Below, piece by piece: positions 9,689 through 15,375 of a stretch of 64,000 nucleotides of DNA; the first letter of the stretch is position 1; each line of letters starts with the position of its first letter. A program made the translations under genes and the position numbers. The notes beneath the pieces were generated by a model. That model was not told where the DNA came from, did not search any database, and saw only the letters and a list, made by a program, of their open reading frames with translations. The stretch is from Escherichia phage vB_EcoM-E33: the sequence record OL780484.1. One strand, given 5' to 3'.

Positions 9689-10010
9689 TTTATCTGATTT
9701 AGATAATTTCGTTAAAGATACCGAAGAGGGTCCTAGTGACCCTCGTTATTATGAGAAATCATTAGATATAATCCGTAAGTCAATGGGTTCTGTTAAGCAG
9801 GAAATTATGCTTACTTTACCCGATGGCACTGCTCACATCGTTTATGTGATGAATATTGTTATTGAGAAAGATGGAAAAGTGTCGGTTGATTTCGGAACAC
9901 CTTCCGAAGACCGAAAAGAAGAGCTAGCGCTTCATGTAGAAAAATGTGTTACAATGCAAATACAAGAAGAACTGGATAAAATTAAATCTAAGAGGTGGTG
10001 GAAGTGGTAG
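9681..10010 (+). CDS. 40: gp40 head vertex assembly chaperone homolog
   Basis: 109-aa ORF between uvsX and 41 as in T4. Confidence 0.6.
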   Translation: MTDLSDLDNFVKDTEEGPSDPRYYEKSLDIIRKSMGSVKQEIMLTLPDGTAHIVYVMNIVIEKDGKVSVDFGTPSEDRKEELALHVEKCVTMQIQEELDKIKSKRWWKW

Positions 10011-11434
10011 AAACTATTTTGGCTCAACTGCTAGGCAATAGTGATTATTTCACTAAGGTCTGGCCTTATATGAATGATTCTTATTTTGACCAGGGTCCTG
10101 CAAAGACCCTTTTCAAAGAAATTAAAAAACACGTCAATGAATATAATGCAGTGCCTTCTAAGAACGCATTGAGCATTGCATTAGATAACAGTACGCTTTC
10201 AGAAGTTGAACATCAAGGCGCTAAAGAGCTTTTAAGTTCGCTGAACGCCGGGCCTGAAGACCAAGAATGGTTGGTTAAAGAGACGGAGAAATACGTTCAG
10301 AAAGCAGCGATGTATAATGCAACTTCAAAAATCATTGAAATCCAAACTAATGCCGACCTTCCAGTTGAGCAACAAAATAGAAAACTTCCAGGTATTGGTG
10401 CTATTCCAGATATCATGCGTGATGCATTATCGATTTGTTTCGATTCTGAATTAGGTCATGACTGGATGGATGACTATGAAGAACGATTCAAAAGTTATTC
10501 CGATAAAGCACGTAAGGTTCCGTTCCGTCTTAATATTCTGAATAAGATTACCAAAGGTGGTGCTGAGTTTGGTACTGAAAACGTATTGTTGGCAGGAACA
10601 AACGTAGGTAAGTCTCTTGGTCTTTGTTCATTGGCTGCTGATTACCTTCAATCTGGTTACGATGTTCTTTATATCTCCATGGAGATGGCAGAGGAAGTAT
10701 GTGCTAAGCGTATCGATGCCAACCTTCTGGACGTGTCGCTGGATGATATCGATGATGGTCACGTCTCGTGGCCTGAATATAAAGCTAAGATGGATAAATG
10801 GCGTTCAACTGCTACTTTAGGTCGTTTAAAGATTAAACAGTATCCTACTGGCGGTGCTAATGCCGATACATTCCGTGCATTATTAAACGAATACAAGCTC
10901 AAACAAAACTTTGTCCCACAGGTCGTTATCGTTGACTACTTGGCTATCTGTGCATCGTCTCGTACGAAAGTTTTCTCTGAAAACAGTTACGGATTGATTA
11001 AGATGGTTGCTGAAGAACTACGTGGACTTGCAGTAGAGAAGAAATTACTGTTGTGGACTGCAGCCCAGACTACTCGTGGTGCGAACGTTGCAGCCGAAAT
11101 CGATATGGCCGATATTGCTGAATCCTTTGGTATTGCACATACTGCAGACTTCATGTTGGGTGTGGTCGAGACAGAAGAGTTCGCTCAGATGGGTATGCAG
11201 ATGGTTAAGCAGCTTAAATCTCGTTATGGCGATAAGAGCTACTACAACAAATTTAAGATTGGTGTTAAGAAAGGAAATCAACGTTGGTACGAAGTTGAAG
11301 ATGATTCCAACCCAGGCCCAGTGAACACTGTTCGTGAGGCTACAGGTGAGATGAATCGCCAGGCCGAGGTCAATCGACAGACGCGTGTTAATAGAAGTGA
11401 TTTGGACGATTTAGCAGCATCTATCAAATTTTAA
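10004..11434 (+). CDS. 41: Replicative DNA helicase gp41 (DnaB-like)
   Basis: MVETILAQL… matches T4 gp41 MVEIILSHL…; Walker A GTNVGKS; GTG start at 10004 after SD AAGAGG (ORF track starts upstream at 9995). Confidence 0.93.
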   Translation: MVETILAQLLGNSDYFTKVWPYMNDSYFDQGPAKTLFKEIKKHVNEYNAVPSKNALSIALDNSTLSEVEHQGAKELLSSLNAGPEDQEWLVKETEKYVQKAAMYNATSKIIEIQTNADLPVEQQNRKLPGIGAIPDIMRDALSICFDSELGHDWMDDYEERFKSYSDKARKVPFRLNILNKITKGGAEFGTENVLLAGTNVGKSLGLCSLAADYLQSGYDVLYISMEMAEEVCAKRIDANLLDVSLDDIDDGHVSWPEYKAKMDKWRSTATLGRLKIKQYPTGGANADTFRALLNEYKLKQNFVPQVVIVDYLAICASSRTKVFSENSYGLIKMVAEELRGLAVEKKLLLWTAAQTTRGANVAAEIDMADIAESFGIAHTADFMLGVVETEEFAQMGMQMVKQLKSRYGDKSYYNKFKIGVKKGNQRWYEVEDDSNPGPVNTVREATGEMNRQAEVNRQTRVNRSDLDDLAASIKF

Positions 11435-11456
11435 GGAGCTTCGGCTCCTTTTTTGT
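11433..11456 (+). terminator. Rho-independent terminator (aaggagc-UUCG-gctcctt + T tract)
   Basis: Stem-loop followed by TTTTTGTTTT immediately after gene 41 stop. Confidence 0.6.
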
Positions 11457-11463
11457 TTTAAGG

Positions 11464-11492
11464 GTTTACATCTCCTGTAGGCGTGATACTAT
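11464..11492 (+). promoter_or_regulatory. T4-type early promoter
   Basis: GTTTAC, 17 nt, TGaTACTAT, then CTATCAACT leader. Confidence 0.55.
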
Positions 11493-11516
11493 AGACCTAT
11501 CAACTTGGAGAACAAA

Positions 11517-11834
11517 ATGAAAACCATCGACTGTAAAGCAGAATATAAAGTGTATTATCATGGAAGTTGTAGTGTTGCTAATATCGGTAATATGCTTTGT
11601 CCTCCTGAGGAAACAGGAGTTCTGTCTGAAACCAGTCGTAAGAAAAACCTGAATCGTGTGTTCTTTACTGAAGATATCGGTTTGGCTAAGATTTATGCTG
11701 GACGTGCAGCCCGTTCAGTGGGAGGAGAACCTCGTCTTTATCGTGTAATTGCTCCGGTAGATGTGGTTTGTTTAAATGATACTAAAGGCGCTACGGTTTA
11801 TCATGCTGAATGGGCCTTCTGTGAGGAAATCTAA
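11517..11834 (+). CDS. Hypothetical protein with possible Arr/Tpt1-like ADP-ribosyltransferase fold (105 aa)
   Basis: ATG 11517 after SD GGAG; motifs VYYHGS … RVFFTEDIGLAKIYA … RLYRVIAP loosely resemble rifampin ADP-ribosyltransferase (Arr) family as I recall it. Confidence 0.5.
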   Translation: MKTIDCKAEYKVYYHGSCSVANIGNMLCPPEETGVLSETSRKKNLNRVFFTEDIGLAKIYAGRAARSVGGEPRLYRVIAPVDVVCLNDTKGATVYHAEWAFCEEI

Positions 11835-12038
11835 ATGCCTAAATTAGAGAAAGTAGTGTTTATTGGTTGGTTTGAAAATGGTAATATGTTTACCAAAGAA
11901 ACCGTTCTGGATGTTAGTGACCAAAATATGATTGAATGGGTTACAGTGCAGTATGCAGAAGTGAATAATGCGCTGGTGAAAGCCTTTGTTGATGACAATA
12001 AAGTTTTTGAGTGTGATTACCGTTCTAACGAAAAATAA
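11835..12038 (+). CDS. Hypothetical protein (67 aa)
   Basis: ATG with SD GAGGAAA; ORF track. Confidence 0.5.
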   Translation: MPKLEKVVFIGWFENGNMFTKETVLDVSDQNMIEWVTVQYAEVNNALVKAFVDDNKVFECDYRSNEK

Positions 12039-12098
12039 CAGTTTACATCAAAGGGATAATGCAGTATATTATCCCTATCAACTACCGAGGAGAACATT

Positions 12099-12392
12099 AT
12101 GAAAAAGTTATTAATCGCAGCAATTCTTGCCGTAGCATCATGTGGTACAGCCCCAGTTACTGCTGGACTTGATAAAGACCTTTGTGAATGGTCTATGACT
12201 GCAGACCAAGAATCAGTCGAACATCAGATTTATGCTGATATCATGAACATCACTAAACGTGACCGCCCTGATATGGTTAAAGAAGTGTCAGACCAATTGG
12301 CTTCAAGCGGCGTTATGCAGTATAACTATGTTCTGTATTGTGACGCTAATTTCGATAACAAAAACATCGTTAAAGAGGTGACAGGTGAATAA
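12099..12392 (+). CDS. Putative lipoprotein (lipobox VASC)
   Basis: MKKLLIAAILAVASCG… signal peptide; SD GAGGAG. Confidence 0.6.
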   Translation: MKKLLIAAILAVASCGTAPVTAGLDKDLCEWSMTADQESVEHQIYADIMNITKRDRPDMVKEVSDQLASSGVMQYNYVLYCDANFDNKNIVKEVTGE

Positions 12393-12825
12393 GATTAACA
12401 GAAATTTAGTTATCAAAAAACTTCGTTGTAAAAATCCAAATGCACAGGCATACAGGATGTTTTGGAGCGACGACCACCAATACCTAGGTTATTTTCTTGT
12501 TGATAGTGATGATAGAATTACAATGGCTCATAAACTTCTTAACAGAGAATTAAACCATTGGCAAGAACTTATTGCGGTGAGGTCTAAATTATTTTCATGC
12601 AATACAATGCACCAATTGGTTTATTTTTTCGCCGATGGTATTCCTGACAAGGTTGAGTTTGATGGGTTTGAATTTAAAGACATCCTCCCGGACAACGAAT
12701 TGAACGACTGTGTTAATATGGATATCCCTAGCAAGTATATCAAAAACAGTCTGTTGAAAATTCTGGAAGCTCCGGTTTATTCAATTGACGACCAGATTTT
12801 TAATGCCTTTATGAATCGAGGTTAA
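12385..12825 (+). CDS. Hypothetical protein (146 aa)
   Basis: ORF track; GTG start after SD AAGAGG; AT-rich accessory region. Confidence 0.45.
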   Translation: MNKINRNLVIKKLRCKNPNAQAYRMFWSDDHQYLGYFLVDSDDRITMAHKLLNRELNHWQELIAVRSKLFSCNTMHQLVYFFADGIPDKVEFDGFEFKDILPDNELNDCVNMDIPSKYIKNSLLKILEAPVYSIDDQIFNAFMNRG

Positions 12826-12826
12826 T

Positions 12827-13048
12827 ATGTTTGTTTTAACTCAATTCTCTAAAGCGGTATATGGTTACTCCTGCCAGTGGGAAGTCTTTATCGATTCTCC
12901 TTCACCTAAGTACGGTGTTTTTGGACGAGTAACTACTCAAGCTTATGTTGCACGGCCGACTAAGCGCCAGCTTCGTAAACTTAAAAAGGCCCATCGCCAA
13001 CTGATTGAAAGAAGGGAACAATATGAGTGCAATGTGTACGGGCTCTAA
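12827..13048 (+). CDS. Hypothetical protein (73 aa)
   Basis: ATG after SD GAGG. Confidence 0.45.
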   Translation: MFVLTQFSKAVYGYSCQWEVFIDSPSPKYGVFGRVTTQAYVARPTKRQLRKLKKAHRQLIERREQYECNVYGL

Positions 13049-13214
13049 GATTTCTGTATTCGAGTTATTCGAAGAATATGAAATCATATCAAAAGACCAA
13101 GAAGCTATCCATATTATTGCTGATGATGGTGTGACTTGGATTATTCCACTTTACCACGAAGATACCTATGAAGTCACTGATGCAAATGGTGATAAAGCTA
13201 TTTTCGTAATATAA
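13023..13214 (+). CDS. Hypothetical protein (63 aa)
   Basis: ATG 13023 after SD AAGAAGGGAA; ORF track 13005..13214 same frame. Confidence 0.4.
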   Translation: MSAMCTGSKISVFELFEEYEIISKDQEAIHIIADDGVTWIIPLYHEDTYEVTDANGDKAIFVI

Positions 13215-13217
13215 ATA
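13210..13217 (+). promoter_or_regulatory. T4-type late promoter TATAAATA
   Basis: Exact TATAAATA ~14 nt upstream of SD AGGAG of the small ORF at 13231. Confidence 0.4.
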
Positions 13218-13230
13218 AGGCCAGGAGCCT

Positions 13231-13392
13231 ATGAAATCTTTTAAAGAAGTTATGAACGAAGATATGGTCGCAGGCGATGCAGGTGGTAACCCATCTAATA
13301 TTGCCTCCGGAACTACCTCAGGCGCGGTCGTCAACAAAGGGCCTGAACAAATCCCATCTAAAAAGCGTAAAGAAAAATCCGAAAACGAATGA
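13231..13392 (+). CDS. Small hypothetical protein (53 aa, Gly/Ser-rich, basic C-terminus)
   Basis: ATG 13231 with SD AGGAG; below 60-aa ORF-track cutoff; preceded by TATAAATA. Confidence 0.35.
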   Translation: MKSFKEVMNEDMVAGDAGGNPSNIASGTTSGAVVNKGPEQIPSKKRKEKSENE

Positions 13393-13430
13393 TATAATGG
13401 CTCTATTAATTTAGAGCCCAAGGAAAAATA

Positions 13431-14459
13431 ATGTCATATGTCGATAGAGAATTTGCTGTACGTGCCTTGAATTACCAACCTAAATTCAGACAAGTAACCG
13501 GTAGTGATTTTAAATTAAACTGCCGTTGTCGTGTATGTGGCGACTCCCTAAAAGATGAGAACAAAGCTCGTTTTTGGGCCTATCCGGCCAATGACGGCTC
13601 CGTAATGCTGCACTGTTTTAACTGTGACTATTCAGCAGGAATTAAGAAGTATCTATACGAATATGAGCCTGATTTATATCGAGAATATATTCTTGAGAAA
13701 CATAAAGAGCAATCGTTCGGGAGACAAGCTGCACCTAAGGTGGAGATATCAGAAAAGATTAAAGCCAAGATGCCTGTCATCGAAAAGCTTAATTTCTGTG
13801 AACGTCTGGATAGAATGCCAAAGGACCATCCTATTATCAAATATGTAACACTACGTTGCATTCCTGAAAACAAATGGAATCGCTTATGGTTTACTAAAGA
13901 ATGGCCGGCATTGGTGAACTCTGTCAATCCAGGGACCTATTCTAAAGAAATGCCTGAGCCTCGTTTGGTTATTCCAATTTTCAATAAGAATAAACAAATT
14001 GAAAGTTTTCAGGGTCGAGCCTTACGTAAAGATGCTCCACAAAAATATATTACAATAAAAGCTCATGACCAAGCTACAAAAATATATGGAATGGATACAG
14101 TTGACGAACGTCAGTTGGTGTGGGTAATGGAAGGCCCTATTGACTCTTTGTTTGTTCCGAATGCAATAGCAATTACTGGCGGGTCGTTGGACTTGGCTAT
14201 GGTTCCATGTAAAGAAACTCGTGCCTGGGTAATGGACAATGAACCCCGCCATCCTGACACAATTAAGCGTATGCAACGATTAGTTGATGCTGGCGAAAGG
14301 GTTCTATTCTGGGACAAGGCTCCATGGCCTTCTAAAGATATAAATGATATGATTATGAAAGATAAAGCTGATATAAATGATGTACTGGCATATATGAAAG
14401 CTAATATAGCCCAAGGTCTAATGGCTAAAATGAGACTTTCAAAATATTCTAAAATTTAG
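13431..14459 (+). CDS. 61: DNA primase gp61 (zinc-binding + TOPRIM)
   Basis: 342 aa, same length as T4 gp61; Cys4 zinc motif CRCRVCGDS…CFNC near N-terminus. Confidence 0.9.
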   Translation: MSYVDREFAVRALNYQPKFRQVTGSDFKLNCRCRVCGDSLKDENKARFWAYPANDGSVMLHCFNCDYSAGIKKYLYEYEPDLYREYILEKHKEQSFGRQAAPKVEISEKIKAKMPVIEKLNFCERLDRMPKDHPIIKYVTLRCIPENKWNRLWFTKEWPALVNSVNPGTYSKEMPEPRLVIPIFNKNKQIESFQGRALRKDAPQKYITIKAHDQATKIYGMDTVDERQLVWVMEGPIDSLFVPNAIAITGGSLDLAMVPCKETRAWVMDNEPRHPDTIKRMQRLVDAGERVLFWDKAPWPSKDINDMIMKDKADINDVLAYMKANIAQGLMAKMRLSKYSKI

Positions 14460-14718: not shown

Positions 14719-15375
14719 ATGAATTACGAAAAAATATACCAGGAATTAATATCTAAAGGAAAATTAAGAGGTTCTAAGCGGTCTTTATCATATTATACGG
14801 AAGAACACCATGTTATACCTAGATGTATGAATGGTTCTGATGATAAAAACAATTTAGTTGCTTTATTGCCAAGAGAACACTTTGTAGCTCATAGGCTTTT
14901 AACAAAAATATATCCCGAAGTAAAAGGTCTACATTATGCTGTTAATTTAATGAGATATAATAAAGGAGTTAAATTAACTAGTAGAACTATAGCCACGTTA
15001 AGAGAAAATAACGCTAAAGCATTTTCAGGAAAAAATAACCCGATGTTTGGTAAACCTTCCTGGATTAGAGGGATGAAAACTCCTGAAGAAACTAAAGCCA
15101 AAATGCGCCTGGCTCATAAAGATAAAATTATATCTGATGAAGCCAAGGCCAATATGAGTAAAGCTAGAAAAGGAAGATTTAGTGGTAAAGATTCCCCTAG
15201 ATATGGTTTGCCGAATCCTAGGCGTGGAGAAATATGGAATAGTTACGATATGCTTTACGAATTATGGGTTTACAATAATAAACCTAAACGCACCAAATTT
15301 AATAAAATAGCTGTTGATAATGGATATCCTGATATTTGTTATCGACGAATGATAGAAAACTTTAATAGGAAATAA
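14719..15375 (+). CDS. Free-standing HNH homing endonuclease (218 aa)
   Basis: HNH motif EEHHVIPRCMNGSDDKNNLVALLPREHFVAH; C-terminal repeated GKNNPMFGKP / GKDSPRYGLPNP DNA-binding-like modules; AT-rich coding sequence; inserted between 61 and 56. Confidence 0.8.
   Translation: MNYEKIYQELISKGKLRGSKRSLSYYTEEHHVIPRCMNGSDDKNNLVALLPREHFVAHRLLTKIYPEVKGLHYAVNLMRYNKGVKLTSRTIATLRENNAKAFSGKNNPMFGKPSWIRGMKTPEETKAKMRLAHKDKIISDEAKANMSKARKGRFSGKDSPRYGLPNPRRGEIWNSYDMLYELWVYNNKPKRTKFNKIAVDNGYPDICYRRMIENFNRK

Follow-up and report, generated by a model that had tools for sequence, protein, structure and literature searches.

Among described proteins, two kinds of ADP-ribosyltransferase (ART), the rifampin ART Arr and the Tpt1/KptA proteins, come closest to the subject of this study, the 105-aa product of ORF 1 (the first open reading frame between the helicase gene 41 and the primase gene 61) of Escherichia phage vB_EcoM-E33 (sequence record OL780484.1). 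The stretch of this record that we analysed, hereafter the window, is 64,000 nt long. Tpt1/KptA enzymes carry a catalytic tetrad of Arg-His-Arg-Arg, and KptA works without a catalytic Glu. Arr is defined by an HGT motif, Tyr49, Asp84 in a DPN[V/L] motif that is 100% conserved in Arr, and an SN[Y/F] motif (PMC6092378). Phages also possess ARTs of other kinds. Alt, ModA, and ModB resemble the present case in being phage ARTs of host takeover in a T4-type phage, but differ in belonging to the R-S-E clade, in their much larger size, and in having proteins as substrates (PMC5512222); T4, which has all three, has no Arr-like gene. The anti-CRISPR ART AcrIF11 (PDB 6KYF) shows no detectable sequence relation to the 105-aa protein, and the 105-aa family has no conserved residue corresponding to the essential Asp115 of AcrIF11, whose target is a Cas protein.

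Three strings in the 105-aa product, YHGS, FFTEDIG..IYA, and LYRVIAP, had led the original prediction to propose an Arr/Tpt1-like ART fold. All three are present, and structure comparison bore the proposal out. The AlphaFold2 model of the protein (predicted local distance difference test [pLDDT] 85; predicted TM-score 0.77) has the split beta-sheet NAD-binding fold of the ART superfamily, and Foldseek ranked Arr first (9iaf; probability 1.00, TM 0.61), followed by several KptA/Tpt1 structures. Sequence homology agreed. The Pfam family Arr-ms (PF12120) matched the 105-aa protein with an E-value of 0.039 and 14.6 bits over positions 1–59 of the 99 in the profile. An exhaustive profile search revealed 244 cluster representatives of the family, and several of these, with E-values of about 1e-28 on the family profile, exceed the Pfam Arr-ms threshold in their own right (27.5–31.5 bits; cut-off 25). 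Searching the PDB with the single sequence or with a profile limited to T4-like members gave no match; a broader profile of 68 sequences, including relatives that pass the Pfam Arr-ms threshold, retrieved from the whole PDB only Arr-ms (E 1.4e-3) and Arr-2. These three lines of evidence are independent of one another and support the ART fold, and together the model and the sequence comparisons show a predicted ART fold, homologous to Arr, in the 105-aa protein.

Arr (Arr-ms 2HW2/9IAF, Arr-2 9IBA, PF12120) is the only family that was reached by a sequence profile. The profile alignment pairs H15-G16 with H19-G20 of Arr, F49 with Y49, and E38-x-G-R41 with E40-x-G-R43, and the features common to both families are H-G-[T/S], an aromatic residue on the next strand, an E-x-G-R loop, a helix, and a GG-x-x-[IV]-[YF]-x-V strand. 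The HGT motif of Arr is kept as H15-G16-S17 (H19-G20-T21 in Arr-ms), with His and Gly in 68/68 sequences and either Thr or Ser at position 17. In contrast to Arr, the 105-aa family has an invariant basic loop of its own, E38-x-G-R-K-K-N-L. Tpt1/KptA is likened to the 105-aa protein by the Foldseek match, by membership of an ART clade without a catalytic Glu, and by the 2H and NUDIX domains fused to some 105-aa relatives, a kind of fusion also known for KptA. However, a Tpt1 orthologue was rejected: the residue before the His is Y14 (Y57/F6/W3 in the alignment) in place of Arg, the N-terminal RNA-binding lobe of the two-lobed Tpt1 architecture is missing (105 versus ~180 aa), and Pfam PF01885 (Tpt1/KptA) gave no match at E<=1. 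Other basic residues conserved in the family are R41, K42, K43, and R63. On these alignments the 105-aa family is placed as a sister of Arr within the Arr/KptA clade and as distinct from both.

The family is by no means rare. By tblastn, members were recovered from at least 609 records of T4-like phages, whose hosts include Escherichia, Klebsiella, Acinetobacter, Aeromonas, Enterobacter, and Vibrio. It corresponds to RB69 ORF040c and phrog_2110 and is annotated as of 'unknown function'; a few of the 609 records are labelled 'putative ADP-ribosyl transferase' and one 'rifampin ADP-ribosyl transferase'. In a survey of viral NAD+/ADP-ribose systems, Arr-family ARTs were recorded only in some actinophages and in Sinorhizobium phage PBC5. 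No homologue was found in T4, either by tblastn (best E 6.4) or by a six-frame hidden Markov model (HMM) search of the whole genome (10.6 bits). As T4 is the model of this phage group and does not have the gene, the gene has never been studied.

The 105-aa protein is 74% identical to the copy in Acinetobacter phage Berthold, compared with 51% and 44% for the compared parts of gp41 and gp61, and by this measure it is better conserved than the helicase and primase that flank it. Residues invariant in the 32 T4-like members include H15, G16, E38, R41, K43, N44, F49, T51, A57, Y60, A61, R63, G69, and G70, and the predicted NAD-site residues H15, G16, S/T17, F49, T51, and Y60 vary little or not at all. 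Taken together, the searches and alignments describe a widespread, strongly conserved, and uncharacterised sister family of Arr that is absent from T4.

A genome locus search with the T4-like-only profile gave five loci: one short contig of a metagenome-assembled genome (MAG), two phage-like contigs of 167–178 kb, and two Patescibacteria MAGs. The members in the last two (L018, 5902–6348; L019), which belong to the candidate phyla radiation, are 44–46% identical; in 185,579 species genomes they are the only members of clearly cellular origin. The Kaiserbacteria locus adjoins a transposase-like ORF and offers no functional clue. The contigs of distant members are phage contexts with one YAcAr/SLOG neighbour and no conserved partner. 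There, on metagenomic phage contigs (L009, 3979–4323; L010, 1234–1578), a standalone member of 193 aa lies two genes 3′ of a YAcAr gene and a GIY-YIG homing endonuclease gene. YAcAr is a SLOG-type domain that binds nucleotides or ADP-ribose.

The exhaustive profile search also found the same module of ~95 residues embedded in proteins as long as 3,924 aa. Its partner domains include ART-PolyVal, NUDIX, GNAT, Toprim, DUF7178, LPD23, CHAP, and a lambda-type portal followed by a 2H phosphoesterase. Four relatives (P0184, P0148, P0209, and P0149) represent four such contexts, namely a portal-ART-2H fusion, a position between ART-PolyVal and NUDIX, and associations with LPD23 and with CHAP. Partner domains of this type are hallmarks of virion-delivered 'polyvalent' proteins, which after injection are thought to modify host proteins (PMC5512222). 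The Arr-like module thus appears, from its domain contexts, to be a so far undescribed component of phage proteins of the polyvalent type. Couplings of KptA to 2H or Nudix domains are the known signature of ADP-ribose transfer to phosphate, with 2H and NUDIX processing the products, and non-protein chemistry (RNA repair, modification of small molecules, and soluble ADP-ribose derivatives) has been assigned to the H-H-h clade of ARTs (PMC9503650), in which, on our reading of the literature, both Arr and KptA may be placed.

On balance, we slightly favour the reading that ORF 1 encodes an early NAD+-using transferase with a non-protein acceptor, employed in takeover or counter-defence and not in rifampicin resistance. 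The 105-aa protein would be produced in the first minutes of infection as an active enzyme and would move ADP-ribose onto a phosphate or hydroxyl of an RNA or DNA end, a nucleotide, or another small molecule, and this transfer would serve host takeover or counter-defence. The parts of this proposal differ in strength: that the protein is catalytically active is probable, that the acceptor is not a protein is a tentative suggestion whose chances fall somewhat below even, and an anti-defence role is what we infer. An enzyme is preferred to a binder because the module is found inside giant phage proteins beside ART-PolyVal, NUDIX, 2H, portal, LPD23, and CHAP.

Several observations weigh against an active transferase of this kind. 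The NAD-binding Tyr49 of Arr is replaced by F49 (Phe in 66 and Tyr in 2 of the 68 sequences), which keeps the aromatic ring without the hydroxyl. No conserved acid that could stand for the catalytic Asp84 occurs at positions 79–105 of the 68 sequences; the likeliest counterpart column reads N27/S17/Q6, in the most probable register, the HMM alignment ending at Arr residue 82. Given the missing counterpart of Asp84 and the change of Tyr49 to Phe, the 105-aa protein could be inactive or use a different chemistry. The KptA tetrad is not kept either, with Y14 where its first Arg would be expected. The 105-aa protein itself falls under the Pfam Arr threshold (14.6 versus 25 bits), and its basic loop (residues 31–47) was modelled with moderate confidence (pLDDT 64–75). 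Across genera the family has no conserved gene partner, the neighbourhoods in Acinetobacter, Aeromonas, Klebsiella, and Vibrio phages being different, and no paper characterising the family was found in the literature.

The absence of a conserved counterpart of Asp84 would suit a non-catalytic ART-fold protein that acts as a sponge for NAD+ or for an ADP-ribose-derived immune signal, or as a decoy of an NAD-dependent defence protein, and so would a small, single-domain, and probably early product whose ligand-site residues are highly conserved. Nevertheless, we regard a sponge or decoy as quite improbable. A missing catalytic Glu is not evidence of inactivity, because KptA, of the same clade, is active without one. 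The module recurs in large proteins with portal, LPD23, CHAP, or ART-PolyVal, and a stoichiometric binder would be ineffective if, as we infer from the account of polyvalent proteins, few copies are delivered per cell (PMC5512222). Another possibility is that the protein is a mono-ADP-ribosyltransferase that modifies and disables a specific host or defence protein, as AcrIF11 does with Cas8f or as T4 Alt, ModA, and ModB do. AcrIF11, too, is a small ART from a phage and has non-canonical residues (H-F-H-D; PMC12421852), ORF 1 has an early promoter and anti-defence genes as neighbours, and, as mentioned above, modification of host proteins has been suggested for polyvalent proteins after injection. 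We consider a protein target unlikely, however: the sequence homology is to Arr and not to the protein-modifying clades, no Glu or Asp is conserved in the C-terminal strands where protein ARTs have their catalytic acid, the module stands beside a separate ART-PolyVal domain in polyvalent proteins, which suggests a different job, and the 2H and NUDIX fusions point to soluble ADP-ribose products.

Given that Arr is the sole sequence-level relative in the PDB and Pfam and that one GenBank record bears its name, the protein might be supposed to be an Arr proper, one that inactivates rifamycins and shields the host RNA polymerase, an enzyme needed by the phage throughout infection. Of the rivals this is the least likely and is very improbable, and true Arr was rejected as an identification. 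The NCBIfam equivalog model for rifampin_ARR (NF033144) gave 12.6 bits against a cut-off of 130, and the Pfam match, itself below cut-off, is confined to the N-terminal positions given above. In addition to the changes at Tyr49 and at Asp84 with its DPN[V/L] motif, the SN[Y/F] motif is aligned with T33-G34-V35, of which only the Ser/Thr is kept. At 105 aa the protein is some 40 residues shorter than Arr-ms (143 aa) and did not match the C-terminal portion of the Arr profile, which includes reported rifampicin contacts such as S99 and V140 (PMC6092378).

If the 105-aa protein is active, it would be a fourth, mechanistically different ART of T-even-type phages, from a clade that modifies small molecules and nucleic-acid phosphates and not proteins. 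A bolder version, which we hold to be unlikely as a whole, is that the 105-aa protein founds an unrecognised and almost purely phage-borne Arr-sister ART family that would ADP-ribosylate a phosphate or hydroxyl of a host immune second messenger or of an RNA or DNA end, and so would represent a new enzymatic counter-defence chemistry; the family would be deployed in two forms, a stand-alone early protein of hundreds of T4-like phages and a domain carried by large multi-domain phage proteins of the polyvalent type. The 105-aa protein is short and easy to test as a candidate anti-defence or host-takeover enzyme of a new kind.

ORF 1 is one of seven small plus-strand ORFs that lie within positions 11464–13392 of the window, bounded by gene 41 and gene 61 (Table 1). 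The 64-kb stretch is from a JS98-like Dhakavirus. Over 11400–13450 the identity of the DNA is 98.8% with Escherichia phage LHE83, 98.3% with MX01, and 93% with JS98, all of them members of Dhakavirus (Straboviridae). The small genes and the early promoter of their own that had been predicted for this interval were both found, with a second early-type site further downstream. Such sites, written as GTTTACA-N15-18-TAYWNT, occur in 10 copies within the window, all on the plus strand, against 0.34 expected. The first of the two sites in the interval lies just past the terminator-like element that follows gene 41 (hairpin part, 11433–11450), ORF 1 has a GGAG Shine–Dalgarno sequence 6 nt upstream of its start, and its TAA stop abuts the ATG of dmd. 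By this layout ORF 1 is the predicted head of an early transcript.

Table 1. Predicted features of the gene 41–gene 61 interval and its flanks (positions in the window)
Feature	Position	Strand	Basis or similarity
Gene 41, replicative helicase (left flank)	9995..11434	+	99.8% identity to JS98 gp41, 66% to T4 gp41
Intrinsic-terminator-like hairpin and T-run 3′ of gene 41	11433..11459	+	AAGGAGCTTCGGCTCCTT then TTTTGTTTTA
T4-type early promoter, GTTTACA..TGATACTAT	11464..11492	+	Motif class
ORF 1, predicted Arr/KptA-clade minimal ADP-ribosyltransferase-fold protein, 105 aa; RB69 ORF040c family, phrog_2110	11517..11834	+	
ORF 2, dmd, antitoxin against RnlA/LsoA RNase toxins, 67 aa	11835..12038	+	PF17587, PDB 5i8j
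Second T4-type early promoter, 5′ of sp	12041..12070	+	Motif class
ORF 3, sp (Spackle), periplasmic inhibitor of gp5 tail lysozyme, superinfection exclusion, 97 aa	12099..12392	+	PF25676, PDB 6x6o
ORF 4, Dhakavirus-restricted protein in the slot of T4 61.2/AdfA, 146 aa, phrog_8539	12385..12825	+	
ORF 5, DUF7279 protein, T4 gp61.4 family, 73 aa	12827..13048	+	PF23945
ORF 6, RB69 ORF033c-like, function unknown, 63 aa, phrog_3249	13023..13214	+	phrog match
ORF 7, gp61.1 homologue, 53 aa, phrog_1823	13231..13392	+	81% identity to T4 61.1 over 42 aa
Gene 61, primase (right flank)	13431..14459	+	99.4% identity to JS98 gp61, 62% to T4 gp61

The original prediction had further described the interval as an accessory island separating two genes that are adjacent in T4. 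This does not agree with the T4 genome (NC_000866), in which the order is 41-dmd-61.4-sp-61.2 (AdfA)-61.1-61, so that five genes intervene, and four of the seven ORFs found here belong to the families of that equivalent interval (Dmd, Spackle, 61.1, and DUF7279 of the 61.4 family). The reading as a novel island that interrupts a pair of adjacent T4 genes was therefore rejected. Comparison of the 41–61 junction across T4-like phages did confirm that gene content varies between genera: RB69 has an extra ORF041c, imm.1, imm, and two further ORFs, JS98 has an extra 61.4, and an Acinetobacter T4-like phage has ~16 small genes, the last being a 61.1 homologue. 'Hyperplastic region' is consequently a fair label, but 'island between adjacent genes' is not.

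In T4, RB69, JS98, and MX01 the early dmd-sp-61.1 cluster occupies the space that separates helicase gene 41 from primase gene 61; the version found here is read from two predicted T4-type early promoters. The interval has the same position and orientation as its T4 counterpart and holds homologues of Dmd, Spackle, DUF7279/61.4, and 61.1. It differs from that of T4 in the addition of the Arr-like gene and of a 63-aa ORF (ORF 6), for which comparison with the T4 genome revealed no homologue, in the replacement of AdfA by an unrelated 146-aa protein that retains only the last 14 residues of AdfA, and in the place of the DUF7279 gene, which is 3′ of the AdfA slot here but before sp in T4. Judged by these sequence matches, the region is the Dhakavirus version of the dmd-sp-61.1 cluster, ordinary and already explained except for its first gene. 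It had also been expected that such regions hold anti-defence genes; since this one carries Dmd and Spackle, and that of T4 carries AdfA, the general expectation of anti-defence or exclusion functions was right.

ORF 2 is assigned to Dmd by PF17587 (78.5 bits; cut-off 27), by PDB 5i8j (E 3.6e-23), and by 59% identity to T4 Dmd. ORF 3, which had been taken for a lipoprotein, turned out to be Spackle (PF25676, 145 bits with a cut-off of 27; PDB 6x6o, E 4.5e-41; 70% identity to T4 Sp). A lipobox-like VASC is indeed present, but the crystallised Spackle construct 7cn6 aligns to residues 23–97 of ORF 3, a match more consistent with cleavage of a signal peptide than with a lipid anchor. ORF 5 scored 67.5 bits with PF23945 (cut-off 24.5), and T4 61.4 scored 72.7 bits on the same model. 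For the remaining ORFs of unknown function in the interval, PADLOC and NCBIfam scans gave nothing useful.

T4 gp61.2 is AdfA (anti-DarT factor A; PF23813, 450 bits, E 1e-135), and ORF 4 in the same slot reached only 16.2 bits on this model (cut-off 27), with a match limited to its final 14 residues. These C-terminal residues, SIDDQIFNAFMNRG (within 12781–12825), are 100% identical in protein sequence to T4 AdfA, with five synonymous differences at the nucleotide level. Within the ORF 4 family the last ~30 residues are near-invariant, and the N-terminal part goes down to 35% identity. The pattern suggests that ORF 4 and AdfA share a C-terminal functional tail carried on interchangeable N-terminal domains.

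The gp61.1 homologue aligns to residues 57–101 of the T4 major capsid protein gp23 (L013, 4945–6507); over 45 aa the identity is 40%, with E 3e-9 in the pairwise comparison and E 3e-7 in a tblastn search of the complete T4 genome. We take this part of gp23 to include the site at which the prohead protease cuts, together with the N-terminus of the mature protein. The protein could be a mimic or decoy of the capsid N-terminus, an idea that matters as several defence systems sense the major capsid protein.

Beyond the interval, a 218-aa ORF at 14719–15375, between gene 61 and gene 56, has an HNH-like 'EEHHVIPRCMNG...N' motif and looks like a free-standing homing endonuclease. At this position JS98 has no annotated gene and T4 has dam. 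Just 5′ of the ribosome-binding site of gene 61, an extended −10-like sequence, TGATATAAT, is followed by a 6-bp hairpin (GGCTCT-N8-AGAGCC) that was noticed by eye, and this element (13394–13421) could be a promoter or a translational control for the primase gene.

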